From Candidatus Latescibacterota bacterium (GTDB lineage Bacteria > Latescibacterota > UBA2968 > UBA8231), in assembly GCA_964291625.2 (NCBI GenBank), contig OZ220089.1, forward strand, positions 4,032,001 through 4,096,000: 64,000 bases of DNA, written 5' to 3'. Position numbers and translations under genes: made by a program. Position 1 is the stretch's first letter. Each line of letters opens with the position of its first letter. The notes under the pieces were generated by a model that was not told the DNA's origin, searched no databases, and was given only the letters and a program-made list of their open reading frames with translations. Positions 29,894 through 52,260 of the stretch are shown here, piece after piece.

Positions 29894-31084
29894 ATGCAGA
29901 TCCGGGACGTGCGCATCTACATCCGGCCGGGGGAGCCGCAGGCGCGGTCGGTGGGCCACCGCGGCGGCATGGAGAAGGCGCCCCCCGGCCTGTCGGGGCT
30001 GTTCACCCACGCCGCCGGCTTCGGGGCGCCGCCGGAGCTTCCCGCCGGCTGGCTTGAGGCCTGTACGGACGAAGCCCTCCATCCCACGTGGACCGCTACC
30101 CTGCGGCTGGTCACCGACGGGCCGCTGGACGCGTACACCAACTTCGGCGGCGGCTTCCACCCCGAGGAGCTGACCCACCAGGCGCGGCGCTTCAAGGTCG
30201 AGATCGGCCCGCTGCTGCTGGGCGTAGACGCCTTCGACCGCGAGTATCTCTGGCAGCGCCTGTGGTACACGCAGCGCTTCTACTACACCGGCCGCGGCGT
30301 GGTCGACATGGTGGACCGAATGTTGTGGGACCTGGCCAGCCGCCACGCCCGGCAGCCCGTGTACCGCCTCCTCGGCGCCTGCCGCGAGAAGGTGCCGGCC
30401 TACCGCAACTACGGCGGGAACACCATCGACGAGCTGGTGGCCAATGCCGTGAAGGTGAAGGAGGACGGCTTCCAGGGCGCCAAGGACCACTCCTACCGCG
30501 GCGTGCGCGGCAACGCCGAGCTGGCCCGGGAGCTGCGCGCCGCCCTCGGCGACGACTTCATCCTGCTCCACGACCCGGTGGAGTCATACACCTACGACGA
30601 GGCCGTGCAGATCGGCCGCGTGCTGGAGGAGCACGACTACACCTGGATCGAGGAGCCCCTGCAGGACTACGACCTGCTGGGACTGAAGAAGCTGTGCGCC
30701 ACCCTCGACCTGCCGGTGCTGGCCCTGGAGTGGATCGGCCACCTCGGCGGCCAGCCCTTCCAGACCGCCCCCTACCTGGCCATGGAGGCCGTGGACATCG
30801 CACGCCAGCGCGGCGTCGGCATCACCGGCCAGATCAAGCAGGCCCAGCTCGCCGAAGCCTTCGGCGTCGAGGTCCACGGCGGCGATCCCCACGCCATCCT
30901 GGCGGTCCCCAACGATCCCCTCTTCGAGACCGGGGGCCAGGGCCCCCGCCCTCCCGAGGACCAGATCGACTGCCGCGGCACGGCGTATGTCGAGGACGGG
31001 TACATGTCCATCGCCTGGAACGACCGCGTCCCCGACGAGCCGGACTGGGATCAGGTGGAGCGGGACTCGGTGGCGGTGGTGTGA
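29894..31084 (+). CDS. Mandelate racemase/enolase superfamily protein; left flank of the island
   Basis: DRMLWDL, AKDH, LLHD, WIEEP motifs; ends WDQVERDSVAVV*. Confidence 0.85.
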   Translation: MQIRDVRIYIRPGEPQARSVGHRGGMEKAPPGLSGLFTHAAGFGAPPELPAGWLEACTDEALHPTWTATLRLVTDGPLDAYTNFGGGFHPEELTHQARRFKVEIGPLLLGVDAFDREYLWQRLWYTQRFYYTGRGVVDMVDRMLWDLASRHARQPVYRLLGACREKVPAYRNYGGNTIDELVANAVKVKEDGFQGAKDHSYRGVRGNAELARELRAALGDDFILLHDPVESYTYDEAVQIGRVLEEHDYTWIEEPLQDYDLLGLKKLCATLDLPVLALEWIGHLGGQPFQTAPYLAMEAVDIARQRGVGITGQIKQAQLAEAFGVEVHGGDPHAILAVPNDPLFETGGQGPRPPEDQIDCRGTAYVEDGYMSIAWNDRVPDEPDWDQVERDSVAVV

Positions 31085-31088
31085 GGGG
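31053..31088 (+). repeat. Enolase-gene 3'-end repeat, copy 1 (native)
   Basis: AGGTGGAGCGGGACTCGGTGGCGGTGGTGTGAGGGG; also at 31682-31712 and 38324-38359. Confidence 0.85.
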
Positions 31089-31097
31089 AGGGTGACC

Positions 31098-31409
31098 ATG
31101 CACGCCGCCATCGCTGACAAGAAGGATGAACTGGCACAACTCTGCCGGCGCTTCGGCGTGGCTCGCCTCGAAGTCTTCGGCTCGGCTGCGCGCGGCGTGG
31201 ACTTCGATCCAGAGACCAGCGACGCCGACTTTCTTGTGGAATTCAATCCCCACAGCGAACTGGCCCCGTTCGACCAGTATTTCGACTTCGCCGATGCCCT
31301 GCGCCGCACCCTTGCGCGCCCCGTCGATCTCGTCGAATCCGGCTCAATCGACAACCCGTACCTGTGGGCAGCCATCCAAGGCTCCCGTGAGTTGGTCTAT
31401 GGGTCCTGA
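31098..31409 (+). CDS. Minimal nucleotidyltransferase (MNT) antitoxin
   Basis: VFGSAARG...SDADFLVEF...PVDLV. Confidence 0.9.
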   Translation: MHAAIADKKDELAQLCRRFGVARLEVFGSAARGVDFDPETSDADFLVEFNPHSELAPFDQYFDFADALRRTLARPVDLVESGSIDNPYLWAAIQGSRELVYGS

Positions 31410-31677
31410 CCCTCGCGTCCTGCTGGCGGACATCGACCGGGCGGGTGCGGACATCAGCCGCTTCACAGAAGGCATGTCCGGCGACGCCTATGCCGGCGAT
31501 GCACTGACGCAAGCGGCGGTCGAGCGCAAGTTCGAGATCATCGGCGAAGCCCTGAACCGCCTGCACCAATCTCACCCGGACCTTGCCGAGCGGATTCCCC
31601 GGCTGCGCCGGATCATCGACTTCCGGAACTTCCTGATCCATGGCTACGCGAGCGTGAGGCCCGAGCGGGTGTGGTAG
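31399..31677 (+). pseudogene. HEPN (DUF86) toxin, C-terminally truncated (92 aa)
   Basis: AVERKFEIIGEA...FRNFLIHGY motif; stops at ERVW*, where the family normally has one more helix; stop lies in the enolase-end copy. Confidence 0.75.
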
Positions 31678-31712
31678 GCGATGGAGCGGGAGGGGGTGGC
31701 GGTGGTGTGAGG
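31672..31712 (+). repeat. Enolase-gene 3'-end repeat, copy 2 (diverged)
   Basis: TGG TAG GCG ATG GAG CGG GAG GGG GTG GCG GTG GTG TGA (W*AMEREGVAVV*) versus native WDQVERDSVAVV*. Confidence 0.8.
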
Positions 31713-31840
31713 CTTCGCCGTGGCGCGATCATCACACCGCCCGTCGGAAGGGCGAGCCCCCTGCCGCAAGCGCCAATCAATAGCCTCTCAGTTCAGGAAA
31801 GTAGTTGCCGAGCAACAAGAAAAACAGGAAGAGCGGGTCT

Positions 31841-32695
31841 ATGCAACGATACTATTCGACTGAGCAGTCATACAATAAGATCTATGTATGCGAGGCATTA
31901 CCGGATGGTGACCTATCAACAGGAATTCAGTTAGCGAGGGACACCCTAAGACCCCTCTGTGATGTGAAAGGGGTTGGCTTAGAAGCCTGCAGAATTGGGG
32001 AGAAGCCAGAGTTTGGGGTCTTCATGAGTCGAGTCAAGTGTCAAGCGAAGAAGCAAGGTGTCTTTCCAATAATCCACCTTGAAATCCATGGACTAAGAGA
32101 CAAGTCGGGACTCCATCTGCCATCAGGTGAGATAGTTAGATGGGGTGAGTTCACTGATAGGTGTCGGGAGATCAATGAGCATTGTTCGAATAACCTTCTT
32201 GTAGTCTTGGCTGTCTGCCATGGGTTTCACTCGGTACTACAAGTAACTATAACCAAGTTGACTCCCTTCTTTACCCTGATAGGCCCAACCGAGACAGTAT
32301 GTGCTGGACAGATAGAAAGAGATTTTCCAGGATTCTATCAGGAACTCCTGAATTCTCACGACTTGACATCAACGGTCTCCATTCTTGGTGATCCCTACCG
32401 GTTGTATCTTTGTGAGCAAGTCTTCGCGACTGGCCTCGTCGCGTACATCAACAATCACTGTCGAGGAAAGGGGCGACAGAAGCGAGTCAATGAACTCCTT
32501 ACAAAGGTAAGAGAGTCAAGTAGTGGACTGCTCATTTCAACCGGAGGTGCACGAAGACTGATCAAGAAGCTAGTCAAGCCAGACGTAAGCGACTTAGAGA
32601 GACATAGAGCCACATTCCTGATGGCTGACGATCCGGCAAACAGAGGGAGATTCACCGCTACTCTAGATGATCTGATCGAACTCTCTTACACCTGA
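31841..32695 (+). CDS. Low-GC protein with caspase/CHAT-like His-Cys motifs
   Basis: PIIHLEIHG and LLVVLAVCHG resemble the CHAT H..HG and LxxC dyad; markedly AT-richer than the backbone. Confidence 0.6.
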   Translation: MQRYYSTEQSYNKIYVCEALPDGDLSTGIQLARDTLRPLCDVKGVGLEACRIGEKPEFGVFMSRVKCQAKKQGVFPIIHLEIHGLRDKSGLHLPSGEIVRWGEFTDRCREINEHCSNNLLVVLAVCHGFHSVLQVTITKLTPFFTLIGPTETVCAGQIERDFPGFYQELLNSHDLTSTVSILGDPYRLYLCEQVFATGLVAYINNHCRGKGRQKRVNELLTKVRESSSGLLISTGGARRLIKKLVKPDVSDLERHRATFLMADDPANRGRFTATLDDLIELSYT

Positions 32696-32874
32696 CAGGG
32701 GGAGGCAACCAAAGGGTGCGGTGAGCCCGGTTCCGAAGGATCTGCAAACGATGATCTCGGGACTGCTTGGCCTTGGCGGTGCCCTCGGCGCCTTGACCCA
32801 GAGCCCAAGAGATGCCTCTTTTCTTGCCACACTTACCCAAGCACACCGTGTCTGTTGTTGGGAGGTTTTGATCT

Positions 32875-34665
32875 ATGGAAGGAAGCCCTATCAGTCTCAA
32901 TGGGTTGCTCATTGGCAACCAAGTGTTCGATATCCCCGTCTACCAGAGAGGCTATGCCTGGGAGAGGAAGAACCTAGAAGATCTGTGGGAGGACCTCTAC
33001 TACCTCGAGCCTTCCAAGAAGCACTACTTCGGTACGGTGCTTCTCAAGGACTCCGGGACCGTTCAAGCCACCTTGGCGACTTTGGATCAGCTCGATGTGA
33101 TAGACGGCCAGCAGCGGCTTACGACTGTCCTGATACTGCTGCGAGAGGTTATCTCGCAACTGAAGGAGGTAGGAGACGATGAGCTGCGGGGAAATCTGGA
33201 TAAGCTGGAGAGGGACTATCTGAAAGATGGTGCCAATTACAAGCTGAACCCTCCGGGTGAGGATGGCAGCTTCTTCCACCAAGTTGTCATCGACGGAAAC
33301 GATTTTCTGGCCGGGGAAACTAGAACGCGCGCCCAGCGCCGTATGGCGGAGGCCAAGACATTCTTCAGAGATCGGCTTGTCGGAGAGAAGGAGAAGGAGC
33401 CTTTGACATACCAGGGCTTCTTGGTGCGATTCAAGCAGAAGATCGACGACCTTCAGCTCATACAATACCGGGTCAACTCGGATACGGATGCCATTCGCAT
33501 CTTCGAGACCGTCAACGACCGGGGCCGCCCGCTGAGCAGTCTCGAGAAGACAAAGAGTTTCCTGATGCACACCTCATACCTTGGGATCAGAGACGCCGCC
33601 GCTGTGGCCGGAAGGCTCGAAGAGTTGAACGGTCACTTTTCCAGGATGTACGGTCACTTCGAGGACGCGAGTGGGCCCAAACACAGCAAAGGTCTGCGCA
33701 TCGGCGAGGACGACGTTCTCCGTTACCACTTCATAAACCACGTTTCCCCGGTCCGAGACCCTTCGTTGCGCCCCTTCGAGAGCCTAAAGGAGAGCATCAG
33801 GGGCAAGCTGAGGAGAGACCCTGGTGAGTGTGTCGAGTATGCGATCGACTACGCTGTTGATCTGGAGAGGGCCTTCTTGGCCTTGAAGCAAATTGCCGAA
33901 GCCACCAGGCAGGACAGAAGAGGCGGGACTCTCAGCAAGTTATTCATGCTGGAGAGGATGGCGAACATTTTCCCGCTCTTGATAGCCTCCTGGCTGAGGT
34001 TCGGAGGTGATGGTCCATGCATAGAGAGGATTCTGAAAGTCCTGGAGGCATTCATCGTTCGTGTGTACCTGTTGTGTGGATACCGGAGCGATACCGCCAT
34101 GACTGAATTCCATAGGAAGGCTCACAGGGTGCATGGCAAGGAATTGGACTACGACGGGCTGCTTGCTGAGCTAGGTAGCTCAATTGAACGTTACGCTAAC
34201 AACGATCAGTTCAAGAGGGCGCTTGGTCAGGAAGACCTATTCTTTCGGCTGAGCTCAAGAGATATGAAGTACCTGCTGAGCGAATACGAAATCCATCTCC
34301 GTGCAAGGGGTGATGTGCCTCTCGCTGTCGCGACACAGGAGAGTGTCCTGACAGCCGAGTACGAGGTAGAGCATATCTGGCCCCAGAATCCGTCCCATGC
34401 AATGGACGTAGAGGAGGAGTCGGAACACCGTCAGAGTGTCCATCGGCTTGGGAACCTGACCATAGCTTCCAAGTCTTGGAACGCAAGCATGGGGAACAAG
34501 ACGTTCCAGGAGAAACAGTCCCAGCTTGGAGAGCGACCAAGCTACTCAAACTCCACTCTGCTGGTACAGAAGGAGCTGGCCAACCTTCCCTCCTGGGACA
34601 TCGAGGCGATCCACGATCGGGAAGCGAGGATAGTGGCCTTCGCGATGCAGAGGTGGTCCGTATAG
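32875..34665 (+). CDS. DUF262 + DUF1524 (GmrSD-like) modification-dependent endonuclease
   Basis: IPVYQRGYAW, VIDGQQRLTT, IFETVNDRG, EHIWPQ...LGNLT...N motifs; GGAGG RBS. Confidence 0.92.
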   Translation: MEGSPISLNGLLIGNQVFDIPVYQRGYAWERKNLEDLWEDLYYLEPSKKHYFGTVLLKDSGTVQATLATLDQLDVIDGQQRLTTVLILLREVISQLKEVGDDELRGNLDKLERDYLKDGANYKLNPPGEDGSFFHQVVIDGNDFLAGETRTRAQRRMAEAKTFFRDRLVGEKEKEPLTYQGFLVRFKQKIDDLQLIQYRVNSDTDAIRIFETVNDRGRPLSSLEKTKSFLMHTSYLGIRDAAAVAGRLEELNGHFSRMYGHFEDASGPKHSKGLRIGEDDVLRYHFINHVSPVRDPSLRPFESLKESIRGKLRRDPGECVEYAIDYAVDLERAFLALKQIAEATRQDRRGGTLSKLFMLERMANIFPLLIASWLRFGGDGPCIERILKVLEAFIVRVYLLCGYRSDTAMTEFHRKAHRVHGKELDYDGLLAELGSSIERYANNDQFKRALGQEDLFFRLSSRDMKYLLSEYEIHLRARGDVPLAVATQESVLTAEYEVEHIWPQNPSHAMDVEEESEHRQSVHRLGNLTIASKSWNASMGNKTFQEKQSQLGERPSYSNSTLLVQKELANLPSWDIEAIHDREARIVAFAMQRWSV

Positions 34666-34768
34666 CTCCCCCGCTCGGCGCCTTGCCAATCCACCTTGTC
34701 AGCAGCCGAGCCTCCGCAGGTCCTTGACGGCATGCGGCACAATGGGAGCAGGCACCGGGTAACTCTGC

Positions 34769-35413
34769 ATGGATGACTTGGCGATATCTCAGCTCCTGTC
34801 CTCGCTTGGCTTCGAGGGCAGGGGCGCCAAACGGGCGCTGCAGCGGCTCTACGGGGAAGGTCTGACCCGGCCCGGCAAGACCCGCATCGCCACCGCCAAG
34901 ATCGAGGCGGTGGAGCGCACACTCGGCGCGGCCTTCGTTCGGCACTGCCACAAACCGGCGTGCGAGCCGGTGCCCGGCGAATCACGCGATCCGGTGATCG
35001 TCGCGGCCACGCACTGCGAGAGCTGCGGCGGCAGCGACAACCGGCGTGCCGTGGAGCGGATGCTGAAGGCGATGCGGCAGGTCGGCTGGAGGAAGCTCCT
35101 GGTGGCAGGCGGATCGCCCGGCACGCGAGGCGAGCTCGAGCGGCTCTGCTCCGGCGGGATCGACCTCCGGTTCGTCACCGCGGAGACCAACCCCAACAGG
35201 CGGACCGTGGCGCCTCTGCTCGGCTGGTCGGACGTCGCCGCGATCTGGGCGTCCACCGAGATCTCCCACAAGGCGACTGCGGTGCTGCGCGGCCCCAAGG
35301 TGCTGAGGGTGCCGCGGCGCGGAGTGGCCGCGCTGGCCGAAGCCGTGGTGGCGCGATGCGACATCAGCGCCACAGCCGGGAACAGCGTGTCCGCTTCCGG
35401 CCGATCCGTGTGA
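34769..35413 (+). CDS. Hypothetical protein, Cys-rich segment plus DUF2325-like C-terminal domain
   Basis: CHKPAC...CESC; LLVAGGSP...DVAAIWASTEISH. Confidence 0.6.
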   Translation: MDDLAISQLLSSLGFEGRGAKRALQRLYGEGLTRPGKTRIATAKIEAVERTLGAAFVRHCHKPACEPVPGESRDPVIVAATHCESCGGSDNRRAVERMLKAMRQVGWRKLLVAGGSPGTRGELERLCSGGIDLRFVTAETNPNRRTVAPLLGWSDVAAIWASTEISHKATAVLRGPKVLRVPRRGVAALAEAVVARCDISATAGNSVSASGRSV

Positions 35414-35456
35414 GGTACGACGACAAGGCGCAGGAATCGCAAAGGAGAGCCCGCGA

Positions 35457-36443
35457 GTGCAGTACAAGAACCTGGGCCGCACCGGCGTCAAGGTCTCCCG
35501 CCTGTGCTGTGGTACCATGGCCTTCGGCGGCGATGCGGACGAGTCGACCGCCGGGCGGATGTACCGCTACTGCCGCGAGCTGGGGATCAACTTCTTCGAC
35601 TCGGCCAACATCTATTCCAGGGGGCTCGCCGAGGAGATCCTGGGGCGCTTGATCCAGGGCGAGCGCGATGAGCTGGTCATCGCTTCGAAGGTCTGCGGTG
35701 CGATCGGTGACGGCCCCAACGACCGGGGCCTGTCGCGGCGGCATATCGTGCAGGCCGTGGAGGCCAGTCTCACGCGGCTGCAGACGGACCGCCTCGACCT
35801 GTACTTCGTCCACAACTTCGACGAGGACACGCCGATGGAGGAAACCCTCGCCGCGCTGGACGACTTGGTGCGCGGCGGCAAGATCCTCTACCCGGCGGTG
35901 AGCAACTGGGCGGCCTGGCAGATCGCCAAGGCCCTCGGCCACTGCGCCCGCGAGGGGCTGGCCCCCTTCGCCTGCATTCAGCCCATGTACAGCCTGGTCA
36001 AGCGGCAGGTGGAGGTGGAGATCCTGCCGCTGGCCCGCTCGGAGGGCCTGGGCGTGATCACCTACAGTCCCCTGGGGGGCGGCCTGCTGACCGGCAAGTA
36101 CGGGATCGACAAGCGGCCCGGGCGGGGTCGTCTCCTGGAACTGGACAACTACACCAGGCGCTACGCCAACCCCGTGTTCTACGAAGTCGCCGAGCGCTTC
36201 GTGCGCTATGCCCGCGACCGGGGCGTGCATCCGGTGACCCTGGCTGTCGCATGGGCCATGGGGCATCGGGACGTGACGGCGCCGATCGTCGGCGGGCGCG
36301 ACCTGGACCAGCTCAAGCCGTCCCTCGCCGCCCTCGATTTCGCCATGTCCGACGAGATGCGCGAGGAGGTGTCGGCCCTGTCGATCGCGCCGGCGCCGGC
36401 TACCGACCGCGACGACGACCTGTTCAAGGGGAGAGCGACATGA
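35457..36443 (+). CDS. Aldo/keto reductase
   Basis: LGRTGVKVSRLC, FFDSANIY, ASK, DLYFVH, YSPLGGG. Confidence 0.92.
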   Translation: MQYKNLGRTGVKVSRLCCGTMAFGGDADESTAGRMYRYCRELGINFFDSANIYSRGLAEEILGRLIQGERDELVIASKVCGAIGDGPNDRGLSRRHIVQAVEASLTRLQTDRLDLYFVHNFDEDTPMEETLAALDDLVRGGKILYPAVSNWAAWQIAKALGHCAREGLAPFACIQPMYSLVKRQVEVEILPLARSEGLGVITYSPLGGGLLTGKYGIDKRPGRGRLLELDNYTRRYANPVFYEVAERFVRYARDRGVHPVTLAVAWAMGHRDVTAPIVGGRDLDQLKPSLAALDFAMSDEMREEVSALSIAPAPATDRDDDLFKGRAT

Positions 36444-37936: not shown

Positions 37937-38355
37937 CGGGCGGGTCCGGCCGATCCGGCATCCCGCCCGCGGAGCGGCCTTCTGAGAGGGCCGCCGTCCT
38001 GCACCGCGAGTCGATCGTGATCGACGGTCACTGCGACATCCTCATTCCGGTCAGCGACGGCAAGATGACGCTCGACCAGCGGGTCGACCTCCCCGACCCC
38101 GGCAGCTGGGAGCCGCCCCTCGGCTTCGACGCCGGCCCCTTCGCCCAGTTCGGGATGTCGGCGCACACCGTCTGGTTCGGGTGCATGGGCCAGTACGACC
38201 TGCCGCGGTGGCGTGAAGGCGGCGTCACCTCGCAACTCTGCGCGGTCTACCTCGACGACGACCAGCTCAACCGCCCGCTGCACCGCGGGCTCGAGATGAC
38301 CTGGCACCTGCACCATGAGGTCGAGGTGGAGCGGGACTCGGTGGCGGTGGTCTGA
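37933..38355 (+). pseudogene. Membrane dipeptidase N-terminal fragment fused in frame to the enolase C-terminal tail
   Basis: Near-identical to the 5' part of the 40610-41722 dipeptidase up to HHEV, then EVERDSVAVV*. Confidence 0.85.
37981..38324 (+). repeat. 344-bp direct repeat, copy 1 (copy 2 at 40631-40974)
   Basis: Constant offset of 2650 bp; about 6 substitutions counted by eye. Confidence 0.92.
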
Positions 38356-38359
38356 GGGG
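38324..38359 (+). repeat. Enolase-gene 3'-end repeat, copy 3
   Basis: 35/36 identity to 31053-31088. Confidence 0.9.
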
Positions 38360-38448
38360 GAAGGTGGACAGGCGGATTCTCGTCTGGACAAGCGTCTCCT
38401 CCAAGGGATGGTTCACGCCCGCCGAGGGCTTGGCACGTGCATTCCTGG

Positions 38449-38476
38449 TTGACAAGGGTGTAGGGTTGCCTATGCT
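38449..38476 (+). promoter_or_regulatory. Sigma70 promoter for the lipoprotein cassette
   Basis: TTGACA-N16-TATGCT. Confidence 0.6.
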
Positions 38477-38556
38477 ACCCTGTCCGGCTCACTCTACAAG
38501 GCTTGTATGTAGGCGGCGGCCGGCAAGTGCAGGGCCGCTCGGATTGGATTCGCAAG

Positions 38557-39210: not shown

Positions 39211-39251
39211 GCATTCCCCCCATGCGATCCGCAGGCGAGATTGGACAGGCT

Positions 39252-40475: not shown

Positions 40476-40609
40476 GCCGACCATCGTAGCGGCGGGTGCT
40501 GCAGTACCAAAGACGAGGGCACCTGGAAAGGTCCGGCCCTTCCTCTCGGCCGTCTCCGCTGGCGGAGGCGCCCCAGTTGTCTGGGCCCCTCCGATCGAGT
40601 GCCCGGGCG

Positions 40610-41722: not shown

Positions 41723-41739
41723 GAGGAAGGACTCACTCC

Positions 41740-43185: not shown

Positions 43186-43260
43186 GCCGGCCCGCTTGCC
43201 GATCCGTCGGCGGCGGACGGCTCGGCGAGCGCCGCGTCTTGCGGCCGATAGTGAGGGCAA

Positions 43261-45459: not shown

Positions 45460-45464
45460 GGGAG

Positions 45465-47081
45465 ATGCCCGCCCCGACGCCCCCCGACACCCGGCCGCCG
45501 CGGGACTGGGAGCTGGTCTACGTCAGCGATCCGTCCAACGTCTGCAACTACGACTTCGACTCGGGCGACTCCCGGCCGCTGGTCACCTCGCACCCGGCTA
45601 GGCCGGAAGAGCTCCGCACCTTCATCGACCGCGTGGCCACCAGCACCGCCGACGTGTTCGTGCAGGAGGTGTACAACGCCGGCTGGACCATGTACTTCCG
45701 CTCCGGGCGTTTCGAGTACGACGCGCGCCCCCAGCACCGGCGGTTCCTGCCGATGATGGACAACGGCATCATGCCCCTGCGGGTGATGCTGGAGCGCTGC
45801 CGGGAGCGCGGCATGCGCTGCCTGGCCGGCTTCCGGGTCAACGACAACCACGGCGCCCCGGACCAGGGCGGCATGTTCCTGCACCGCAACCCGCAGTGGA
45901 AGATCACCGAGGTGCCGCCGGGCGGCGCCTTCCTGCCGGGCAACCGGATGGACTTCACGTTCCCCGAGGTGCGCGACTACCTGTACGCGGTCGTCGCCGA
46001 GGTCGTGTCACGCTTCGACGTGGACGGCGTGCTGCTTACCATGCGCGATGGCCTCTACTTCCCCGCCCCCGGCGGCGATCGGAGCCTCGCCCGCGAGCGC
46101 CAGCCGCTGATGACCGGCCTCATCGAGCGGCTGCGCGCCGTGCTCGACGAGCACGGCGCCGCGCGCGGGCGGCGGCTGGAGTTGGGTGCGCTGGTGCCGG
46201 AGACCCTGGAGGACGGCCGCGCCGTGGGGCTGGACGTGCCCGCGTGGATCGGCGGCGGACTGGTCGACTTCGTCGCTCCCATGGACTCGTCGTTCACCGA
46301 CTTCAACGCCGACTACGAGGAGTTCCGCGCTCTCACCGCGGGGACACCCTGCCGGCTCTACCCGGGCGTGCAGCCGTACTGCTCCTCGCGCGAGAGCTTC
46401 GGTCCGCCGGCGACGGCGGAGAACTACCGCGCCCTGGCGCACGCCCTTCGCCAGCAAGGCGCCGACGGCATGTCGGCCTACAACTTCCAGAAGCACTGGG
46501 GCGGGTTCCGTTGCGGCCGGCGCGGCACCGAGACCGGCTGGCCCGCGGCCTTCCGCCTGCTGCGCGAGGCTCGCAACCCGCAGCGGGTGGCCGACGGCGT
46601 CCGTCACTACACCTACCGCTCGATGTGGGGCGGCTACCACGGCATCAGCCCGTCCGGCACCAACGTGTGCGGCACGATGAAGGACCAGAAGCTGGTCCTG
46701 CCGCGCGAGCCGGGCAGTCCGTCGGCGAGCTACCGGTTCCGGCTGTTCGAGGAGGTGGAGCAAGCCGCCAGCGCCACCCTGTTCCTGCGCGCCGTCGGCC
46801 TGGGATCGGCCGACCGGATCGCTGTTCACCTCAACGGCACCGAGGTTCCGGCCGAGCGGCTCCGCCGCGTGCACCACCGCGAGGGGCGCCCGGAGCAGGC
46901 GGGCCGGCCGCTGCCCCCGCACACCACCGTCGTCATCGACCTGGCCCCCGGCCTGGTGGTGCCCGGCGACAACGATCTCACGCTGACGCTGCTGTTCTCC
47001 GGGACGGTGGACGTCGGCGCGGTGCCGGACCCGGAGCCGATCGTCGTCGACGAGGTGGACGTGACGGTGGTGCCGGGCTGA
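45465..47081 (+). CDS. Glycoside-hydrolase-like (GHL10/DUF187-type) TIM-barrel protein
   Basis: FRVNDNH, MDFTFPEVRDY, RFDVDGV, GLDVPAWI, GADGMSAYNF. Confidence 0.7.
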   Translation: MPAPTPPDTRPPRDWELVYVSDPSNVCNYDFDSGDSRPLVTSHPARPEELRTFIDRVATSTADVFVQEVYNAGWTMYFRSGRFEYDARPQHRRFLPMMDNGIMPLRVMLERCRERGMRCLAGFRVNDNHGAPDQGGMFLHRNPQWKITEVPPGGAFLPGNRMDFTFPEVRDYLYAVVAEVVSRFDVDGVLLTMRDGLYFPAPGGDRSLARERQPLMTGLIERLRAVLDEHGAARGRRLELGALVPETLEDGRAVGLDVPAWIGGGLVDFVAPMDSSFTDFNADYEEFRALTAGTPCRLYPGVQPYCSSRESFGPPATAENYRALAHALRQQGADGMSAYNFQKHWGGFRCGRRGTETGWPAAFRLLREARNPQRVADGVRHYTYRSMWGGYHGISPSGTNVCGTMKDQKLVLPREPGSPSASYRFRLFEEVEQAASATLFLRAVGLGSADRIAVHLNGTEVPAERLRRVHHREGRPEQAGRPLPPHTTVVIDLAPGLVVPGDNDLTLTLLFSGTVDVGAVPDPEPIVVDEVDVTVVPG

Positions 47082-47132
47082 GGGGGTCGTCATCTCGAGC
47101 TGTCTTGCCCAACTCAGCACAATGGCCGCCCC

Positions 47133-47509
47133 TACCAGAATCGTGCGGTCGAGGCTGCGCATGGTATCGAGGAGTTGATCGGACTTGCCCACGCGATGCG
47201 GGAGCGGAACTCACGCGGAGGATGCTCAAGCTATCGGCCCGGCAAAGTTGCGTTCTTCGATACCCTCAGTGTCAAGGACAGCGCGGTGCAGGTTCCCGGC
47301 GGCGATACGCTGGGCGCCGCGACCTTGACTGGACGGTGCGGGGCAGCGTTACCATCGACAGGACCTTACGAGAGAACGTCCACGCCAAGCCCCACGCCCT
47401 CGTGGATCGCGTCACATGGAGGTACGGGTGCCCGCGAGGCAAGAAGGCATCGGCGATCCGGACGGTGCTGGAGCAAGCCGAGGTTCTGTCCCACCGGGTG
47501 GGCGAGGAG
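47133..47509 (+). pseudogene. hsdR: Degraded 3' end of type I restriction endonuclease subunit R (DUF3387 region)
   Basis: YQNRAVEAAHGIEELIGLAHAMRE...AFFDTL..KDSAVQV, then after a frameshift TVRGSVTIDRTLRENVHAK...RYG.P..K...AIRTVLEQAEVLS. Confidence 0.8.
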
Positions 47510-48973
47510 ATGGTCTTGACCACGACGCTTGAAGGTTTCGACCGCAAGGGGTGGATCATCCGGTTCGGCCAGGCTCTCGAGGACGCGGCCGCCACAGCTC
47601 GGCCGCATGGGGTCCCCTTCCGCATGTACGGGCAAATCCGGAGAGAAGAGAACCGCCGATACCGCGAGATGGCTGAGCTGGCCAGGACCGATCCGTACGC
47701 CGCCAAGCTGTTCGACGAGTCCCACCTCTGGCTCGACGCCCTGCCCGACGGCGTGCAGGACCTGCTGTTGGAGCACCCCGTGATGGAGCACGCGTGGTCC
47801 CGCGGATCGAGGGAGGGGTTCCATTTTGTGCACCTGCTTGGAAGCGGCCACGCCGGTGTCAGTTCCCTGATTGCCGACCTCGCCAAGCTGTCGGTCAAGG
47901 TAGGCGGCAAACGCGCGGCGACCATGCTGCACAGGTTTCTCGTCGCCGGAGAGGCCGTGCGACTGCACGCCCACGAGATCACGGTGTTCCACGGCTTGAA
48001 GCTCGAGGAGCCGATCCGGCTGGGACGAGGCGCCTATCTGGCCTCCTACGACGCCGTCCGGAAGCGTTTCGGACTGGACGAGGATCCGGAACCCTGGCTG
48101 AGACGGAGCGACGAGGGCCTGGATTCTCACCCAGGAAGACTGGCTCGCACGTCGTCGCGCGCCGTGCTCGTTCGACAAGTGAAATGGGGACCCGCTGTGG
48201 CGCCGTGTGACTGTCCCACCAAGTCGGAATGGCCCCTCAGGCTCAGCTACCGGTTCCCCGAAGACCACCGCGTCGAGTCAGTGGCCGACCTCTTCGAAGA
48301 ACGCCGAACCCTGTTGCTGCTGTTGGGCATCGCAGTGCGATCCAAGCTGGTAAGTCACACCGGCATCGATGCCGTGCCCCCTTGGATGACTCAGCTCAAC
48401 CCCAACCTGCGAACCGAATCCCCGGGAGGTGACTGGGGGGTATTCGACGTGTGGCCGGAAGACCAAGCGCCATCCAAGGAGGATCTAGACGCCTTCACGG
48501 CGGCGGCCCTCGGCTGGCTGACCTTCTGCGCCGGGAAGGAAGACCGCAGCACGGAGCTGGCGATCCGGCGCACCGCTGCCTGCTTCGGGATCGCCGGGGG
48601 CAGGTTCGGCGTGGAAGATCGGCTAATCGACGCCGGCATCGCGTTGGAAGCCATGTACGGTCCGTTCGATGGCGGCGACATCAGACGCAAGATCAGCTCG
48701 CGCACCGCCTGGCTGCTGGGCGGGTGCGCCTACGAAGGCCGCGCGATCTCCAAGGACATGAAGTCGTTCTACTCGACCCGCTCCAAGGTTGTCCACGGAA
48801 CGGTCAGCCGGGATCGCCAGAAACGAGAGCGAGAGCTCGCCGGCGCTCTCGAGACGGGACGAGAGCTCGCTCGCAGTACGCTCTTCGGCTTGCTCGCTCG
48901 GGGTCCGGTCCACCACGAGAGCGAATGGGACGCGCTCATGCAGGAGAGTCCGACAGGCGCGAGCGACAAGTAG
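47510..48973 (+). CDS. Apea-like HEPN domain protein
   Basis: GAGGAG RBS; DRLIDAGIALEAMY...ISSRTAWLLG...FYSTRSKVVHG (RxxxxH). Confidence 0.78.
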   Translation: MVLTTTLEGFDRKGWIIRFGQALEDAAATARPHGVPFRMYGQIRREENRRYREMAELARTDPYAAKLFDESHLWLDALPDGVQDLLLEHPVMEHAWSRGSREGFHFVHLLGSGHAGVSSLIADLAKLSVKVGGKRAATMLHRFLVAGEAVRLHAHEITVFHGLKLEEPIRLGRGAYLASYDAVRKRFGLDEDPEPWLRRSDEGLDSHPGRLARTSSRAVLVRQVKWGPAVAPCDCPTKSEWPLRLSYRFPEDHRVESVADLFEERRTLLLLLGIAVRSKLVSHTGIDAVPPWMTQLNPNLRTESPGGDWGVFDVWPEDQAPSKEDLDAFTAAALGWLTFCAGKEDRSTELAIRRTAACFGIAGGRFGVEDRLIDAGIALEAMYGPFDGGDIRRKISSRTAWLLGGCAYEGRAISKDMKSFYSTRSKVVHGTVSRDRQKRERELAGALETGRELARSTLFGLLARGPVHHESEWDALMQESPTGASDK

Positions 48974-48975
48974 CT

Positions 48976-49490
48976 TCAAAGTCCCTTCATGTATTTCAAC
49001 ATATGCAGCCTGAGCTCCTCCGGCTTCGGAGGTTGTGGAACGTTCAGGTCCTCCGCGAGGAGGGCGCACGCGGCGGCCAAAGCGGCCTCCATATGGAACC
49101 CTCCCGACGTGGTGACGGGCTCGTTTTCCTTCCTAACCTCGAAATGCTCCGGGTGGGGAAAGTGACCAATGCCGATGGTGGCGAACCTACCCTTGTGCCA
49201 TACGATGGTCTCGGCCCTTGATCTCGTGTTGAGCAGGAAAACCGCGCCCCGTTCTCGTAGAACGTTACGACGTCGCCGTAACCGAGGCTTTCGAACCAGA
49301 AGCGGCCGGAGGGAGTGACAGTCCACGGCCCATCGCCGCCGTCTTTCTCGAGCCAACCTTGCTCGACGAGAAAGTCGACGACCTTCGAGACCTCGGGGTC
49401 TGCCTCCACCTCAAGCGGGAGTTCGAGCTTGCCTTTGGGGTTCGAAGCCCCGCGTGCAAGCAGGTCGTACGTCAGTCTAGCATTCAATTC
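48976..49490 (-). pseudogene. Possible frameshifted hypothetical gene with wHTH-like N-terminus
   Basis: LVEQGWLEK...WTVTPSGR in one frame appears to continue as FLLNTRSRAE...MKGL* in another frame near 49240. Confidence 0.4.
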
Positions 49491-49519
49491 GAGCCACCGT
49501 CTGCCGTTTGGCGTTGCCG

Positions 49520-49596
49520 CTCCATCTCCGCCCCCGTCAACGCCAGGTCGAAGACCTCGGCGCTGGCCCGGCACTCAGCGCCGGGTGCGGGCGCCG
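49520..49596 (-). repeat. Diverged copy of the AKR 3' end (native at 51319-51394)
   Basis: About 90% identity over 77 bp with one indel; continues to an alternative stop (MERQRQTADGGSN*). Confidence 0.88.
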
Positions 49597-49616
49597 CCAA
49601 CGAGCCCCCCCGGGGC

Positions 49617-49744
49617 AATGAGACGGAATTAGACACAATAAGACAGGGATGGCATCGAAGGCATAACCGATTGTTTTTGCGTTGCTTATGTCGATCAAGA
49701 GAACTGGGACCCGAAATGAGCCGGAATAAGACAGAATAAGCCGA
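49617..49744. repeat. Two triplets of 10-bp direct repeats flanking an IHF-like site
   Basis: AATGAGACGG/AATTAGACAC/AATAAGACAG (49617-49646) and AATGAGCCGG/AATAAGACAG/AATAAGCCGA (49715-49744); TAACCGATTGTTT between them. Confidence 0.75.
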
Positions 49745-49762
49745 AAGCCACGGCGCCGAGTA

Positions 49763-51148
49763 CTATCGGCGCTTCCACCGCGCACCCCGGCCATGGCCCT
49801 CACACTTGGCCAAGCCAAGTGTCCGCAAGATCCGCAAGTCGTCGCGTACCTGCCGCTCGGTAGGTGAATTGCCCAGCTGGGGGATGATCTCCCGCAATGC
49901 GTAGCCGATGCGCTCTCCCTCTAGCAGAGACAGAATGTCCCTCTGTCGTTCGGTCACCTCCCGCTCGACATGCCTCGGAACGTACGACTCCGGCCGGAAG
50001 CGCACAGTGACGCATCCGCCGGCGTCCTCGATCTCCGGTGCCGGCAGTCCGGCGTTCGTTGTCAGTTCCCTCATCTTGATCGTTCCCCGTCCCCACTGCT
50101 CGATGATGCCACGCCGGTAGAAGACTTGCGCCACAAGAGGATTCCAGGGCAGGGACTCATGAGGCTCGAACAGCGATTCGGCTGTAAGCCCGAAGTGCAG
50201 GGTTCCCGAGGAGGTCACTTCGAGGCGGTCGTCGTATATCGCCCCGGCCACTGACCCTCCTCCAATCGAGTAGTCCCGGTGACAGATGGCGTTGGCAAGG
50301 GCCTCCCGCAACGCTTCGGGAGGATAGAGCGGATCGTCCACCCGTTCGAACAGGCCTGGCTCGATTCGTCCGGCTATGGGCAGATTCTCCCGGAAGAAGC
50401 GCTCCGCCCTGTTCAGCAACTCGAAGGCGTTGCCGTGAAATTGCCGGTTGTCCAGGAATTCGGTACGGTCCGTACCACGGAATTTCGCCACCCGCAGCAT
50501 GCACTGCGTGTACTCTCTCTCAACGCGGTCCGGCCGCCCGAACAAGACGACCGCTGCCCGCAGCAGGCTGTCTCCACGGATCAGGCCGAACCCGCGCAGC
50601 AGCGCTGCGGGATCACGGGTCCCTGGATCGTCCGAGCGCCCTCGCCGGATCGCCTCCTCGAGGGTACGAACGATCTCGTTACGGTCGAGATCACCGACTC
50701 CCCAACCCGAGGCAGGTTCGTTCTCCCAACGTCGTTCTCCGTGCAGGCGTTCGAGGAGAACCTGGTTGTACTGGTCCCGCGACATGGCCTGGTTGGTGTT
50801 GGCCACCCTGCGCCAAGTCCTCCCGCGGTGACTGTACGGCTGGGTCTGTCCCTTCGAGACGGTAACCACCACGACCTCCTTTCCGTCGCCCACAGGCACG
50901 CGATCGACGGAAGGGGAAGCCGGGGGTTCGATTTCTCGTAGCTCTGCGGCGATCTCTTCAAGCGTGTGATCCCCGACAAACTGACCGACTACCCGGCCAT
51001 CCGGTCGCACGCCGAACAGGACCGTGCCGCCGCGATGGTTCAGCATGGCGCATGTGGTTCGCGCCCCGGTACGCAACTCGCCGGTACTGACCTTCAGCTC
51101 CAGGGTCTCCGACTCGCCGTCGGCAGCCAACGCCTTCGATTTCGTCAA
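49763..51148 (-). CDS. Schlafen/AlbA_2 domain + HATPase_c_4 (RecG C-terminal-like) + wHTH protein
   Basis: GESETLELK, CAMLNHRGGTVLFGV, YPPEALREALANAICHRDY, NPLVAQVF..IEQWGRG, C-terminal HTH GHGRGARW. Confidence 0.88.
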   Translation of the reverse strand: MTKSKALAADGESETLELKVSTGELRTGARTTCAMLNHRGGTVLFGVRPDGRVVGQFVGDHTLEEIAAELREIEPPASPSVDRVPVGDGKEVVVVTVSKGQTQPYSHRGRTWRRVANTNQAMSRDQYNQVLLERLHGERRWENEPASGWGVGDLDRNEIVRTLEEAIRRGRSDDPGTRDPAALLRGFGLIRGDSLLRAAVVLFGRPDRVEREYTQCMLRVAKFRGTDRTEFLDNRQFHGNAFELLNRAERFFRENLPIAGRIEPGLFERVDDPLYPPEALREALANAICHRDYSIGGGSVAGAIYDDRLEVTSSGTLHFGLTAESLFEPHESLPWNPLVAQVFYRRGIIEQWGRGTIKMRELTTNAGLPAPEIEDAGGCVTVRFRPESYVPRHVEREVTERQRDILSLLEGERIGYALREIIPQLGNSPTERQVRDDLRILRTLGLAKCEGHGRGARWKRR

Positions 51149-51288
51149 GTGTCATACGTTCGGAATTCCGGGGCTTCCAGTACAGGTCGCACTTCAAAGT
51201 CCTTCTTCCGCGGCGAGGTTCAAGGTCTCTGCCAACCAGGGTGCCTTGCCGGGCGAGGTAAAAACAGGAGGGACCGATGGGGTCCCAT

Positions 51289-52260
51289 TCACCGCTCCTC
51301 GCGCCGCAGGTCCAGCCACTCCATCTCCGCCGCCGTCAGCGGCAGGTCGAAGACCTCGGCGTTGGCCCGGCACTCGGCGCCGTTGCGGGCGCCGACGAGG
51401 GCGTACACGTCCAGGCCCGGCTGCCGCAGCACCCACGCCAGGGCCACCTGCGGCACCGTGCAGCCCTTCTCCCCGGCCAGCTCCCGCACGCGGTCGAGGC
51501 GGCGCCAGTTGTCCTCGTGCCAGTAGGAGGCGACGCTGGAGGCGTCGACCTCGTCGCGCAGGGACTCGGCGTTGGCCCGGGTCAGCAGGCCCGAGAAGAA
51601 CCCCCGGCCGAGGCTCGACCAGGTGAACAGCGGCATGCGCCGCTGCGCGTACCACTCCCGGTCCGCCGCCCGCGAGGGTCCGGAGATGCTCAGGCAGCCC
51701 TCCCAGGGGGTCTCCTTCTCGTCGGCGAGGCCGAAGTTGGGGCTCGAGGCGACGAAGCCCCGCAGGCCGCGGGCCTCGGCGTACTCGTTGGCCTCCTGCA
51801 GGCGGGCCGTGGTCCAGTTGGAGCCGCCCATGGCGCGGATGCGGCCGGCGTCGAGGTGCTCGTTGAGGGCCTCGACGATCGGGCCCACGGGGACCCGCGG
51901 GTCGTCGCGGTGCAGGCAGTGCAGATCGTGGTAGCCATGGCGCTGGCGGGCCAGGGAGTCGGCGAGGTCGGCGGCGATGTCGTAGGGGGTCACGCGCCGG
52001 CGGTCGGAGTTGTGGTGGCAGCTCTTGCCGAGGACGAAGGCCTGGTCGCGCAGGCCGCGATCCTCCAGCCACCGTCCGAGGACGCGCTCGCAGGTGCCGC
52101 CGCCGTAGAGGGCGGCGGTGTCGAAGGCGTTGATCCCGGAGGCCCACACGGCGTCGAGGAACTCGAACCCCTCCTCCTGCTCCTCCTCGCGCAGCATGAT
52201 CGTGCCCTGCACGATGCGGGAGACCTTCTTGTCGCTCCAGGCGGGCTGTCCGTATTCCAT
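51289..52260 (-). CDS. Aldo/keto reductase; right flank of the island
   Basis: FDTAALY, GK, LHRDDP, GGSNW, WSSLGRG, QVALAW. Confidence 0.9.
   Translation of the reverse strand: MEYGQPAWSDKKVSRIVQGTIMLREEEQEEGFEFLDAVWASGINAFDTAALYGGGTCERVLGRWLEDRGLRDQAFVLGKSCHHNSDRRRVTPYDIAADLADSLARQRHGYHDLHCLHRDDPRVPVGPIVEALNEHLDAGRIRAMGGSNWTTARLQEANEYAEARGLRGFVASSPNFGLADEKETPWEGCLSISGPSRAADREWYAQRRMPLFTWSSLGRGFFSGLLTRANAESLRDEVDASSVASYWHEDNWRRLDRVRELAGEKGCTVPQVALAWVLRQPGLDVYALVGARNGAECRANAEVFDLPLTAAEMEWLDLRREER

Follow-up and report, generated by a model that had tools for sequence, protein, structure and literature searches.

Organization of the locus

The stretch of DNA analysed here (64,000 nt, henceforth the window) belongs to an uncultured sponge-associated Latescibacterota-type bacterium with a 5.9-Mb genome, represented by a metagenome assembly (95% complete, 6.6% contamination). 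Comparison with four sister genomes (G002, G004, G006 and G007; the genome of the window is G000) divides the region into two variable slots with conserved genes between them: V1 extends from eno2 to the dipeptidase gene, and V2 from the GHL10 gene to AKR1. The same slots hold other contents in the related genomes, and both empty and alternative alleles, which the earlier note on this DNA had proposed to look for, are present among the four sisters. The genes between the slots code for a CehA/McbA metallohydrolase, a BNR protein and a GHL10 protein (41740–47081, forward strand) and are common to G002, G006 and G007.

The left flank of V1, eno2 (29894–31084, forward strand), is a core gene of the enolase superfamily (MR_MLE, sugar-acid dehydratase-like; Pfam MR_MLE_N and MR_MLE_C); NCBIfam dehydratase families match it as well, every match lying below the cut-off. 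The C-terminal tail of eno2 is retained in 24 of the 24 orthologous loci compared. Fourteen nucleotides past its stop codon, and preceded by the ribosome-binding-like run GGGGAGGG, starts MNT (31098–31409, forward), a full-length MntA-like nucleotidyltransferase antitoxin gene (Pfam NTP_transf_2; PADLOC PDC-S09, with profile positions 1–99 of 101 covered). The adjoining HepT-like toxin gene (31399–31677, forward) is cut off at its 3' end exactly at the start of a copy of the eno2 end, and its profile matches end early (Pfam HepT-like at position 103 of 120, NCBIfam HepT_toxin at 107 of 120). Then come the low-GC block 2 (31762–34764, forward; GC 0.50–0.59) with genes for a DUF6642-like protein (31805–32695) and GmrSD (32875–34665; Pfam GmrSD_N and GmrSD_C, PADLOC HEC-06/Orf5), and the high-GC genes orf214, AKR2 (an aldo-keto reductase, 35457–36443) and a sulfatase (together 34769–37936, forward), common to G002, G004 and G006. 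The slot is completed by the low-GC block 3 (38367–40630, forward), which comprises a lipoprotein-like ORF (38503–39210) and a GSDH/PQQ-type β-propeller gene (39222–40475). Its right flank is the dipeptidase gene (40496–41722, forward; Peptidase_M19), whose true start is probably near 40620.

The left part of V2 (47099–49515), common to G002, contains a T1RH-like ORF on the forward strand and a split winged-helix-like ORF on the reverse strand. A gene for a Schlafen/AlbA_2 plus HATPase_c_4 protein (49763–51148, reverse) is cargo that, at this site, is specific to this genome, and AKR1, an aldo-keto reductase gene identified by Pfam (51289–52260, reverse), forms the right flank. The labels that the earlier note had given to the cargo are supported in the case of MNT and HepT, of GmrSD, of the GSDH/PQQ-like protein and of the protein with Schlafen/AlbA_2 and HATPase_c_4 domains; 'caspase-like' is a lead only, derived from a DUF6642/CHAT-associated cluster.

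Gene-end copies at the borders of variable blocks

When both strands of the 5.9-Mb genome were searched for the 36-nt eno2 end, with as many as 7 substitutions tolerated, three sites were returned, at 31053 (0 mismatches), 31679 (7) and 38324 (1), all in the window, and no further copy outside it. Together with alignments, the search recovered the three enolase-end copies claimed at 31053–31088, 31672–31712 and 38324–38359. The first, E1 (31053–31095, forward), is the native end and spans positions -30 to +12 relative to the stop codon. The last ~30–50 nt of eno2 are repeated at 31662–31712 and 38324–38366: E2 (31662–31761, forward), delimited by alignment and allele comparison, is a diverged copy of 51 nt (78% identity) plus 49 nt, and E3 (38324–38366, forward) has 1 mismatch in 36 nt and a junction covered by contigs of two runs. 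All copies include the stop codon and about 30 nt upstream of it. The homology between E1 and E3 amounts to 43 nt (-30 to +12), and that between E1 and E2, with gaps, extends over about 31036–31110 versus 31662–31745. The statement that a different cargo block follows each copy is only roughly right, as E2 is followed first by its 49 nt, ancestral intergenic sequence that matches the DNA directly 3' of eno2 in G007.

E3 directly abuts a further duplicate, absent from the earlier list: an orphan copy of the dipeptidase 5' end (37981–38322, forward; weak Pfam Peptidase_M19 match), which aligns with 40631–40972 over 335–342 nt at 98–99% identity and is fused straight to E3 at a junction that falls within patchy similarity. 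The two dipeptidase starts differ in their leaders, that of copy 1 being of the G002 type and that of copy 2 of the G007 type (the last ~36 nt of block 3, 40595–40630, are the G007-type leader), and we therefore conclude that two alleles stand here in series. In V2, the reverse-strand piece at 49516–49596 (81 nt, present also in G002) is about 88–91% identical to 51315–51396 within AKR1. The repeat reported at 49520–49596 versus 51319–51394 is therefore real, but it is not strictly a 3' end: the orphan derives from the inside of the gene near its 3' end, covers codons about -36 to -9, continues into another tail, and is without the last 8 codons and the stop. Nor does the cargo follow it directly, since about 190 nt common with G002 come first.

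The gene-end copies coincide with the borders of blocks that vary among the sister genomes, and four of the five pure indels in the window region have repeats at their borders. Single-copy empty sites exist for MNT-HepT in G007 (31-nt overlap), for block 3 in G002 (one copy of a 338-nt repeat) and for two insertions outside the slots. One of these lies at the DRL_cat-SAF gene (16500–17843), for which the same signature had been proposed: the insertion (17807–18786, forward) carries a 295-aa ORF of no known family (17854–18741) between copies of a 19-nt repeat (17807–17825 and 18768–18786), whose identity of 17/19 is by itself at chance level, but the empty G007 locus with a single copy identifies it as a true insertion. 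The old 3-codon tail, ancestral in appearance, is now behind the cargo, and the tail of the SAF gene has therefore been displaced. At both eno2 and the SAF gene the cargo begins right past the stop codon and has a ribosome-binding-like run of its own. The other insertion (25338–26807, forward), missing from G006 and G007, has an imperfect repeat (13 of 20) at its borders.

Among the cargo of V1, the MNT insertion is common to four assemblies, and block 2 is missing from G002, G004 and G006; neither block 2 nor block 3 was found in the 9 other genomes of the genus. Block 2 probably did not arrive as a cassette at E2; it is more likely that MNT-HepT was inserted ahead of block 2 and that 31444–34764 was afterwards deleted in three sister genomes.

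The duplicated pieces range from 19 to 338 nt and include 3' ends, 5' ends and whole intergenic regions. Their extents vary: eno2 repeats begin at -30 (E3), at about -48 (E2) and, in a fragment found in G007, at about -290; the dipeptidase repeat reaches +342, the AKR repeat spans -107 to -26 and the SAF repeat -28 to -10.

Recombinases, common motifs and similar scars elsewhere

The Pfam scan of 77 ORFs of the window yielded no match to recombinase or transposase families, so that the region is, as the earlier note had it, integrase-free as far as Pfam sees. Likewise, the scan of the slot alleles of G000, G002, G006 and G007 gave no integrase; of the G004 allele only a part is present, on a contig that stops 3.9 kb past eno2. 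Elsewhere in the genome there are four tyrosine-recombinase and zero serine-recombinase matches, the nearest being a tyrosine recombinase (437-aa frame) 27 kb outside the window; the genome also encodes ComEC and Ku. No Y2 transposase was detected in this genome by profile or tblastn, the profile result being a weak blank, as it matched 0 of 14 control genomes. Among the repeats of different loci, motifs are shared no more than expected by chance, since 321 of 400 random sets show at least as much sharing, and the repeats form no hairpins better than shuffles (z between -0.9 and +1.1 for 6 folds).

Such scars occur at about a dozen further loci of the genome. Repeat pairs that flank low-GC DNA comprise 22 direct versus 9 inverted pairs, and at a spacing of up to 8 kb there are 17 direct pairs at 12 loci versus 1 inverted pair. 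Ten of these loci, taken as 11 stretches, were scanned, and at 7 of them the cargo gave no recombinase match. One locus has an empty site with a single copy of 62–63 nt in three of four relative genomes, and at another a whole intergenic region and both gene ends are duplicated. In an unbiased 60-kb sample of the genome border repeats occurred at 0 of 5 indels longer than 300 nt; genes are therefore not generally gained in this way in this genome.

Possible mechanisms of accretion

Most likely, the foreign defence and accessory genes accumulated via the cell's own sloppy recombination and not via a dedicated integration enzyme. Specifically, we favour, as somewhat better than an even bet, a recombination that adds DNA independently of an integrase, with one junction formed by homology and the other by microhomology, which would stack alternative alleles of a variable slot. 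Slot contents would enter as DNA of relatives that hold other genes in the slot, and the usual outcome would be a swap of the resident allele through two homologous crossovers in the flanks. Sometimes, one end may pair homologously while the other is joined illegitimately at patchy microhomology within a flank gene (homology-facilitated illegitimate recombination, HFIR, or equivalently a Campbell-type entry of a circle with a piece of the flank). The incoming allele would then come to lie beside the resident one instead of replacing it, and part of the flank gene would be duplicated; the intact flank copy would keep its function and the orphan copy decay. Repeated rounds could thus leave scars of the eno2 end, the dipeptidase start and the AKR end where blocks meet, and later deletions, such as that of 31444–34764 in three sister genomes, would trim the stack. 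The repeats, the alleles, the empty sites, the junctions in independent contigs and the lack of recombinase genes are observed directly. The proposed route agrees with repeats that copy conserved coding ends and are exclusive to the locus, with their varying lengths and end points, with the cut HepT gene at the E2 junction, with the duplication of a 5' end, with the two dipeptidase leaders in series, with the single-copy empty sites, with the displaced SAF tail, with the similar scars elsewhere in the genome and with the precedent of 3'-end displacement at Rhs, CDI and T6SS loci. On the other hand, three eno2-end copies within 7.3 kb look site-like, two of them start within a few nt of each other (counting only the strong E2 homology), and E3 forms a tidy unit of 43 nt. 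Donors of the single alleles that this route predicts (eno2 directly followed by block 3, or by block 2), whose existence we infer together with the route, were not found in 9 genomes of the genus and 10 metagenome loci. Moreover, the low-GC cargo must once have come from a distant donor, a step with no homologous anchor, and published HFIR events mostly delete recipient DNA, and duplication is not their usual outcome. The placement of the blocks on one DNA molecule, as read from assembled contigs, also appears to sit uneasily with unequal contig depth in the likely source run (about 15 for block 2, about 6 for block 3).

Site-specific accretion, in which the eno2, AKR and SAF ends are attachment sites for successive integrative elements that lost their integrase and transfer genes (CIME-like) or never carried an integrase and depended on a recombinase gene elsewhere for their movement, seems to us unlikely but not negligible. 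Insertion at a gene 3' end with the reading frame restored and direct repeats at block borders is its classical signature, the stop codon and about 30 nt before it are common to the E copies, the cargo at eno2 and the SAF gene starts right past the stop, the 437-aa-frame tyrosine recombinase lies 27 kb outside the window, and the available text of PMC5704250 describes how decayed elements accrete in tandem at the end of a gene. However, the scanned slot alleles gave no integrase, blocks of 0.6–2.3 kb are far below the size of decayed ICEs and IMEs, the repeat end points vary, a cargo gene is cut at one border, one 'block' is a fragment of the downstream dipeptidase, the loci share no motif beyond chance, and no hairpin was found. 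For the proposal that 3' ends serve as reusable landing pads of a trans-acting system we see no support, given the varied extents of the repeats, the 5' and intergenic duplicates, the cut HepT gene and the lack of a common motif or of better folding than in shuffles. The earlier interpretation is thus supported as regards integrase-free cargo, copies at block borders and the SAF insertion, and unsupported as regards dedicated landing pads; the evidence favours its second option, capture driven by homology or microhomology.

Rolling-circle capture is the proposed origin of complex class 1 integrons in which the 3' conserved segment is duplicated. An IS91/ISCR-type element beside eno2 could similarly have copied neighbouring DNA into circles, whose homologous re-entry would duplicate the flank; such flank duplications around cargo are what the model predicts, and in G007 a Y2_Tnp frame (PF04986, E = 5e-23) lies directly behind eno2 and the 49 ancestral nt. 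Yet this frame lacks its N-terminal and C-terminal parts and is therefore a remnant, this genome gave no Y2 transposase, no element ends were identified, and the other scarred loci are without such a gene, which makes this route improbable here. An assembly artefact, with strain alleles of the variable locus strung together, is the sort of error that a metagenome assembly of the above completeness and contamination may contain: several variants coexist in the source-like run, with depth of about 6–17 on the cargo versus 70–290 on the flanks, and two sister assemblies break at just these places (G002 within eno2, G004 at the sulfatase/dipeptidase border). We nevertheless consider it very improbable. 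Contigs of run X23 cover both odd junctions (truncated HepT to E2 and dipeptidase to E3) at 100% identity, a contig from another study's sample (X2) spans the latter at 98%, and X3 holds a G002-like allele. Furthermore, the MNT insertion recurs in four assemblies and the AKR orphan in two, E2 and the AKR orphan are 10–20% diverged from their source, which an overlap-based mis-join would not yield, and the joined sequences have no overlap at the junctions.

Comparison with known systems

Integron cassette arrays comprise small cassettes in series, often promoterless-looking, with a recurring short sequence between them. The present locus resembles them in these respects, but there is no IntI-type gene nearby and no folded attC-like site, and what recurs is the end of a protein-coding gene. 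In ISCR1 complex class 1 integrons the 3' conserved segment is duplicated; here too, two copies of a flank segment bracket cargo and an IS91-family remnant is present at the site in one relative, but neither an intact element nor element ends were seen, and this genome has none. In the minimal mobile element model of Neisseria alleles are cleanly swapped, while here one allele is set behind another and parts of the flanks are left duplicated. The shared features are alternative contents per slot in related genomes and the lack of mobility genes, the Neisseria elements being, in the available text of PMC3787668 and PMC1797815, different genes exchanged by homologous recombination between the same conserved flanks. 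Integrative elements and CIMEs, as far as the text of PMC5704250 goes, accrete in tandem at the 3' end of a target gene and include decayed integrase-less units, as here; the scanned alleles without integrase, the tiny units, the variable repeat ends and the cut cargo gene set our locus apart.

For Rhs, CDI and T6SS effector-immunity loci, the available part of PMC5361080 (citing Jackson 2009, Prudhomme 2002, de Vries and Wackernagel 2002, and Meier and Wackernagel 2003) ascribes strings of orphaned 3' regions to homology-facilitated illegitimate recombination. Judged by that text, the flanks of our locus differ in being ordinary metabolic enzymes and not polymorphic toxins, the cargo consists of defence, toxin-antitoxin and accessory genes instead of immunity genes, and a 5' end is also duplicated, with no obvious selective logic such as immunity retention. 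Within the same limits, the likeness is that new modules are placed after the conserved part of a gene, old ends are kept downstream as orphans, mobility genes are lacking and arrays are built by repeated events; at the SAF gene and AKR1 the gene tail is literally displaced.

Organization of the locus and its cargo

The GC content of the window is about 70–75%, interrupted by low-GC patches at 31–35, 38–40 and 47–51 kb (here and below, window positions are used unless a contig is given). According to the assignments made by Pfam, NCBIfam and PADLOC, the gene order begins with eno1 and eno2, tandem enolase-superfamily paralogues, followed by MNT with a truncated HepT, a DUF6642-like protein with GmrSD (block 2, 31762–34764), orf214, the aldo-keto reductase AKR2, a sulfatase, a dipeptidase fragment, and a lipoprotein-like ORF with a GSDH/PQQ-type propeller (block 3, 38367–40630). 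Then come the full M19 dipeptidase, a CehA/McbA hydrolase, a BNR protein, a GHL10 protein, a T1RH-like ORF and a split winged-helix-like ORF, and finally, on the minus strand, a Schlafen/AlbA_2 ATPase and AKR1. The cargo (GC 0.50–0.63 vs about 0.70–0.75 in the flanks) occupies two slots, V1 from eno2 to the dipeptidase and V2 from GHL10 to AKR1; its defence-type part comprises GmrSD, MNT-HepT and the Schlafen/AlbA_2 ATPase (Pfam, PADLOC). With clustered defence genes of foreign composition that lie between core genes and differ among relatives, the locus is a defence island or hotspot. To our knowledge, most variable hotspots in bacteria are devoid of mobility genes, and the entry of genes into them has mostly been inferred rather than seen. 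The present locus retains readable scars of several successive additions, and its sisters keep both empty and alternative states.

Duplicated gene pieces at the block borders

Orphan pieces of the flanking genes sit at the block borders and the intact gene is kept, as in 3'-end displacement. The 3' end of eno2 (E1, 31053) is accompanied by two copies, E2 (31662–31712) and E3 (38324–38366). When both contigs (5.9 Mb) were searched with mismatches allowed, this end was recovered only at 31053, 31679 and 38324, and the AKR piece at no positions other than 51319 and 49520; being restricted to this locus, neither is a genome-wide repeat element. The repeats described in the earlier note are therefore real, but the largest one had been overlooked: positions 37981–38322 are a 98–99% copy of the dipeptidase 5' end, fused head-on to E3. 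The eno2 tail is native coding sequence: its C-terminal motif persists in each of the 24 orthologous loci compared, whose identity falls as low as 58%. E3 coincides with E1 over positions -30 to +12 relative to the stop codon. E2, an older copy of the eno2 end, consists of 51 nt (78% identity) and, behind them, 49 nt matching the DNA directly behind eno2 in the sister genome G007. Common to E1, E2 and E3 are about 30 nt before the stop; the end points vary, on the left about -48, -30 and, in G007, -290, and on the right about +35 and +12. The AKR copy, which has a different tail, derives from inside the gene (codons about -36 to -9).

Comparison of the dipeptidase (40595–40650) with its counterparts in G002, G006 and G007 revealed four different N-terminal leaders before the common LHRE motif, a variation that is the 5'-end counterpart of tail displacement. 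A fourth E copy before the dipeptidase is doubtful: in G002 it corresponds to a 21-nt match with an nhmmer E-value of only 0.26, and its supposed remnant in the window is the native leader of the dipeptidase.

Alleles in sister genomes

Four genomes of the same genus carry the locus at about 88–95% DNA identity. The order in G002 is eno2, MNT, orf214, AKR2, sulfatase and dipeptidase, and, after GHL10, the T1RH block, the AKR orphan, other cargo and AKR1; the left part is the same in G006 and G004. In G007, eno2 is followed by the 49 nt, a remnant of an IS91-family transposase, other genes and the dipeptidase, and GHL10 by a decayed 290-nt eno2 3' fragment, a PIN_12 gene and AKR1. Each slot thus has at least three contents among G000 (the genome carrying the window), G002, G006 and G007, and close relatives carry alternative alleles that could serve as donors. 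In the protein tree of eno1 and eno2, G000 and G002 are sisters (support 89/99), and the branching of G004, G006 and G007 is not settled by the tree.

Empty sites were identified for two of the additions. G002 has one dipeptidase start at the site of block 3, vs two in the window (338-nt overlap), and G007 has the empty site of MNT-HepT (31-nt overlap). One of the two dipeptidase starts in the window has a leader of the G002 type and the other of the G007 type, which indicates that two alleles lie in series. The stretch 31444–34764, missing from G002, G004 and G006, where it is replaced by 6–28 nt of filler with no repeat, is of another kind: it reads as a deletion, because the gap removes most of HepT. 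Synteny behind eno2 is absent in more distant relatives (16 stretches from 15 genomes) and in 10 metagenome loci, none of which contributes a slot gene or a further allele, and no copy of blocks 2 and 3 was found in nine other genomes of the genus. The sister genomes show both empty and alternative states, but the exact predicted donor alleles (eno2 followed directly by block 3, or by the 49 nt and block 2) were absent from the nine other genus genomes and the metagenome loci.

The eno2 fragment of G007, located between GHL10 and PIN_12, corresponds to the last ~290 nt of the gene, with frameshifts and a 24-nt gap, and suggests an earlier entry of the entire block from the dipeptidase to GHL10 at the eno2 end as well. 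Directly behind eno2 in the same genome (L013:17733–18497) lies a Y2_Tnp frame of the IS91/ISCR family, without its N- and C-terminal parts, which is the only trace of a mobility gene at the locus across the five genomes.

Are the junctions assembly artefacts?

Public sequencing runs that contain parts of the window are mostly sponge metagenomes. In the likely source run, one contig spans 31518–34797 and another 38275–40669, each at 100% identity; a 321-nt contig from a sponge sample of a different study crosses the dipeptidase::E3 junction at 98%, and a third sample contains the G002-like join of 31472 to 34745. The MNT insertion is common to four assemblies and the AKR orphan to two. The junctions themselves are therefore not an assembly artefact; as to the chimeric assembly considered in the earlier note, the contigs dispose of it for the junctions; that all blocks lie on one molecule is presumed. 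Contig depth is about 15 for block 2, about 6 for block 3 and 70–290 for the flanks, these values being sums that include related organisms. Among the 15 contig joints listed (nine more exist) none connects E1 with E3 or the two dipeptidase copies, and contigs cannot reveal rare circles. The short-read assemblies of the sisters break inside eno2 (G002 C114/C30, codons 221–238) and at the sulfatase/dipeptidase border (G004 C34), places that coincide with those repeated or variable in G000.

Search for a recombinase, an integron or a shared site

No match to recombinase or transposase families was found in the window ORFs scanned, nor any recombinase match in the slot alleles of G002, G006 and G007, in agreement with the earlier proposal that the cargo is integrase-free. 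The whole genome contains four matches to tyrosine recombinases (PF00589), the nearest 27 kb beyond the window, and none to serine recombinases (PF00239). Integrons are characterized by IntI, attI and folded attC sites; here the window has no recombinase, and all six E contexts folded with z-scores between -0.88 and +1.08, so that attC-like folding was rejected. The repeat lengths vary widely (19, ~20, 31–65, 62, 81, 181, 240, 338 and 748 nt). A candidate motif, GAGCRGGAC, shared by the E, SAF and L052 repeats, was rejected, since in 321 of 400 random sets of same-size segments a 9-mer recurred within one mismatch in at least three segments, equal to the observed sharing. A possible Chi-like hot spot within E was suggested by GAGCGGGAC and words related to it, which occur at only 1.3–2 times a Markov expectation and show no strand skew at the whole-contig level.

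Insertion at the SAF gene end

At the end of the DRL_cat-SAF gene (17807–18786), the 19-nt repeat alone is at the level of chance, as the same 4 kb contain 10 comparable repeat families. G007, however, lacks exactly 17826–18767 and has a single copy of the 19 nt. The SAF gene of G007 and of distant orthologues ends five residues past a conserved REQ, the tail of the filled alleles has seven residues (DRVIIDP, with minor variation), and a G007-like tail is located behind the cargo. The empty site and the old tail behind the cargo together identify an insertion that displaced the tail of the gene. A second small insertion (25338–26807), missing from G006 and G007, is flanked by a 13/20 repeat.

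Similar scars elsewhere in the genome

A k-mer scan of the genome for isolated local repeats (at least 30 nt, at least 85% identity, 0.4–25 kb apart, bracketing a 500-nt stretch with GC of at most 0.58) identified 22 direct vs 9 inverted pairs; at a spacing of up to 8 kb there are 17 direct pairs, at 12 loci, vs one inverted pair. The window accounts for two of the 12 loci, and at least two others are of a different nature, the one at 1383531 consisting of paralogous C-termini and the one at 728569 of a repeated 11-nt unit. Cargo at the 10 other loci includes an OLD-like ATPase, AAA_14-DUF4143, Fic, HipA, WD40 and LRR proteins (Pfam, 90 ORFs from 11 stretches), and transposases are confined to the three largest islands. 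The site of L052 is empty in three of four relatives, which have a single 62–63-nt copy, and is occupied by different cargo in the fourth. In L056, a 2-kb insertion particular to G002 lies at the same gene end, between copies of a 53-nt repeat. At L047 (G000 C1:692001–709000), the AAA_14-DUF4143 and DUF2279 lipoprotein modules are in the opposite order in G000 vs G002. None of the five indels above 300 nt in three arbitrary 20-kb stretches compared with four relatives has border repeats, which speaks against the scar as a general rule.

Some stretches of the genome have peculiarities of their own. Between the two single-gene modules of L047 there are pieces of the flanking Kelch and GCS2 genes. 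In L057 (G000 C1:726001–739000), three tandem 11-nt G-rich units at 2569–2602 and again at 10221–10254 flank a 7.6-kb defence block that encodes HsdM, an OLD-like ATPase, an AIPR protein and a Schlafen/AlbA_2 protein. A family of near-identical 39–40-nt repeats within 3 kb (G000 C1:679625–682883) may be a CRISPR-like or other interspersed array. L049/L050 and L054 (G000 C1:1279001–1308500 and 1552001–1572000) are islands of 15–22 kb, bracketed by direct flank-gene repeats of 0.75–2.1 kb, each with one giant fn3/cadherin-type protein (2434 and 2336 aa) and with IS66, Mu-like or IS630-type transposase genes.

Possible mechanisms

A site-specific enzyme with a defined core is argued against by the variable lengths and end points of the repeats, by the use of 5' ends and whole intergenic regions besides 3' ends, by the cargo gene (HepT) cut at a border, by repeats that neither fold nor share a motif beyond chance, and by the scarcity of recombinases (four tyrosine, no serine, no Y2 transposase). 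The structures would instead be the expected outcome of one homologous and one illegitimate junction, and the donor might enter either as a linear molecule or, in Campbell fashion, as a circle with a piece of the flank. Judging from the junction sequences, the truncation of HepT and the variable end points, the illegitimate junction probably falls at short microhomologies and at variable positions, as in homology-facilitated illegitimate recombination. The same route has been proposed for Rhs, CDI and T6SS loci, where orphaned 3' regions occur in strings (PMC5361080). The locus is a well-documented case of scar-leaving additive recombination at variable slots; it documents the stepwise pile-up of defence and accessory genes between ordinary enzyme genes without an integrase, and it carries the 3'-end displacement pattern beyond polymorphic toxin loci, to ordinary metabolic genes as well as 5' ends. 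We know of no information about recombination in this uncultured phylum. Selection for intact eno2, dipeptidase and AKR1 alone would bias the surviving junctions toward gene ends. ComEC-family and Ku genes are present in the genome and say little on the mechanism. Weak points of this reading are the missing donor alleles, the lack of copies of blocks 2 and 3 in the nine other genus genomes, and the first entry of low-GC cargo from a distant donor, which it leaves unexplained.

The three eno2-end copies within 7 kb keep alive a site-specific accretion of the CIME type, with a precedent in PMC5704250; such accretion, however, needs a recombinase in or beside the island or in one of the alleles, and the family searches found none there. 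Capture by rolling-circle transposition, to which the IS91 remnant in G007 might point, has low odds, as IS91/ISCR elements require an intact Y2 HUH transposase with oriIS and terIS ends and only the doubly truncated frame of G007 was found, with no Y2 transposase in G000. The idea of gene ends as landing pads for a trans-acting system is not supported, given the variable end points and the lack of a shared motif, and has a low probability. Or perhaps this sponge-symbiont lineage regularly adds small, often promoterless cassettes immediately before or after expressed housekeeping genes, by a recombinase-independent process or a still unrecognised trans-acting one? We regard this as unlikely. 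Tens of nucleotides of gene-end sequence would then be the pairing site, gene ends at a dozen or more loci could be docked at repeatedly, and the gain, shuffling and loss of cassettes would resemble an integron lacking its integrase, the module order of L047 being a possible case of shuffling. Were a dedicated mechanism at work, it would represent gene capture of a new class; nothing in the evidence at hand calls for one, and recombination by one homologous and one illegitimate junction is preferred here.

Other observations in the window

Between the AKR orphan and the Schlafen gene (49614–49744) there are four overlapping AT-rich units of about 23 nt with 10-nt offsets, arranged in two clusters 88 nt apart, which G002 has too. 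The region of a coiled-coil ORF (11403–12275) aligns only patchily with all three compared relatives, at 78–85% over 11297–12100, vs 87–93% in its flanks.
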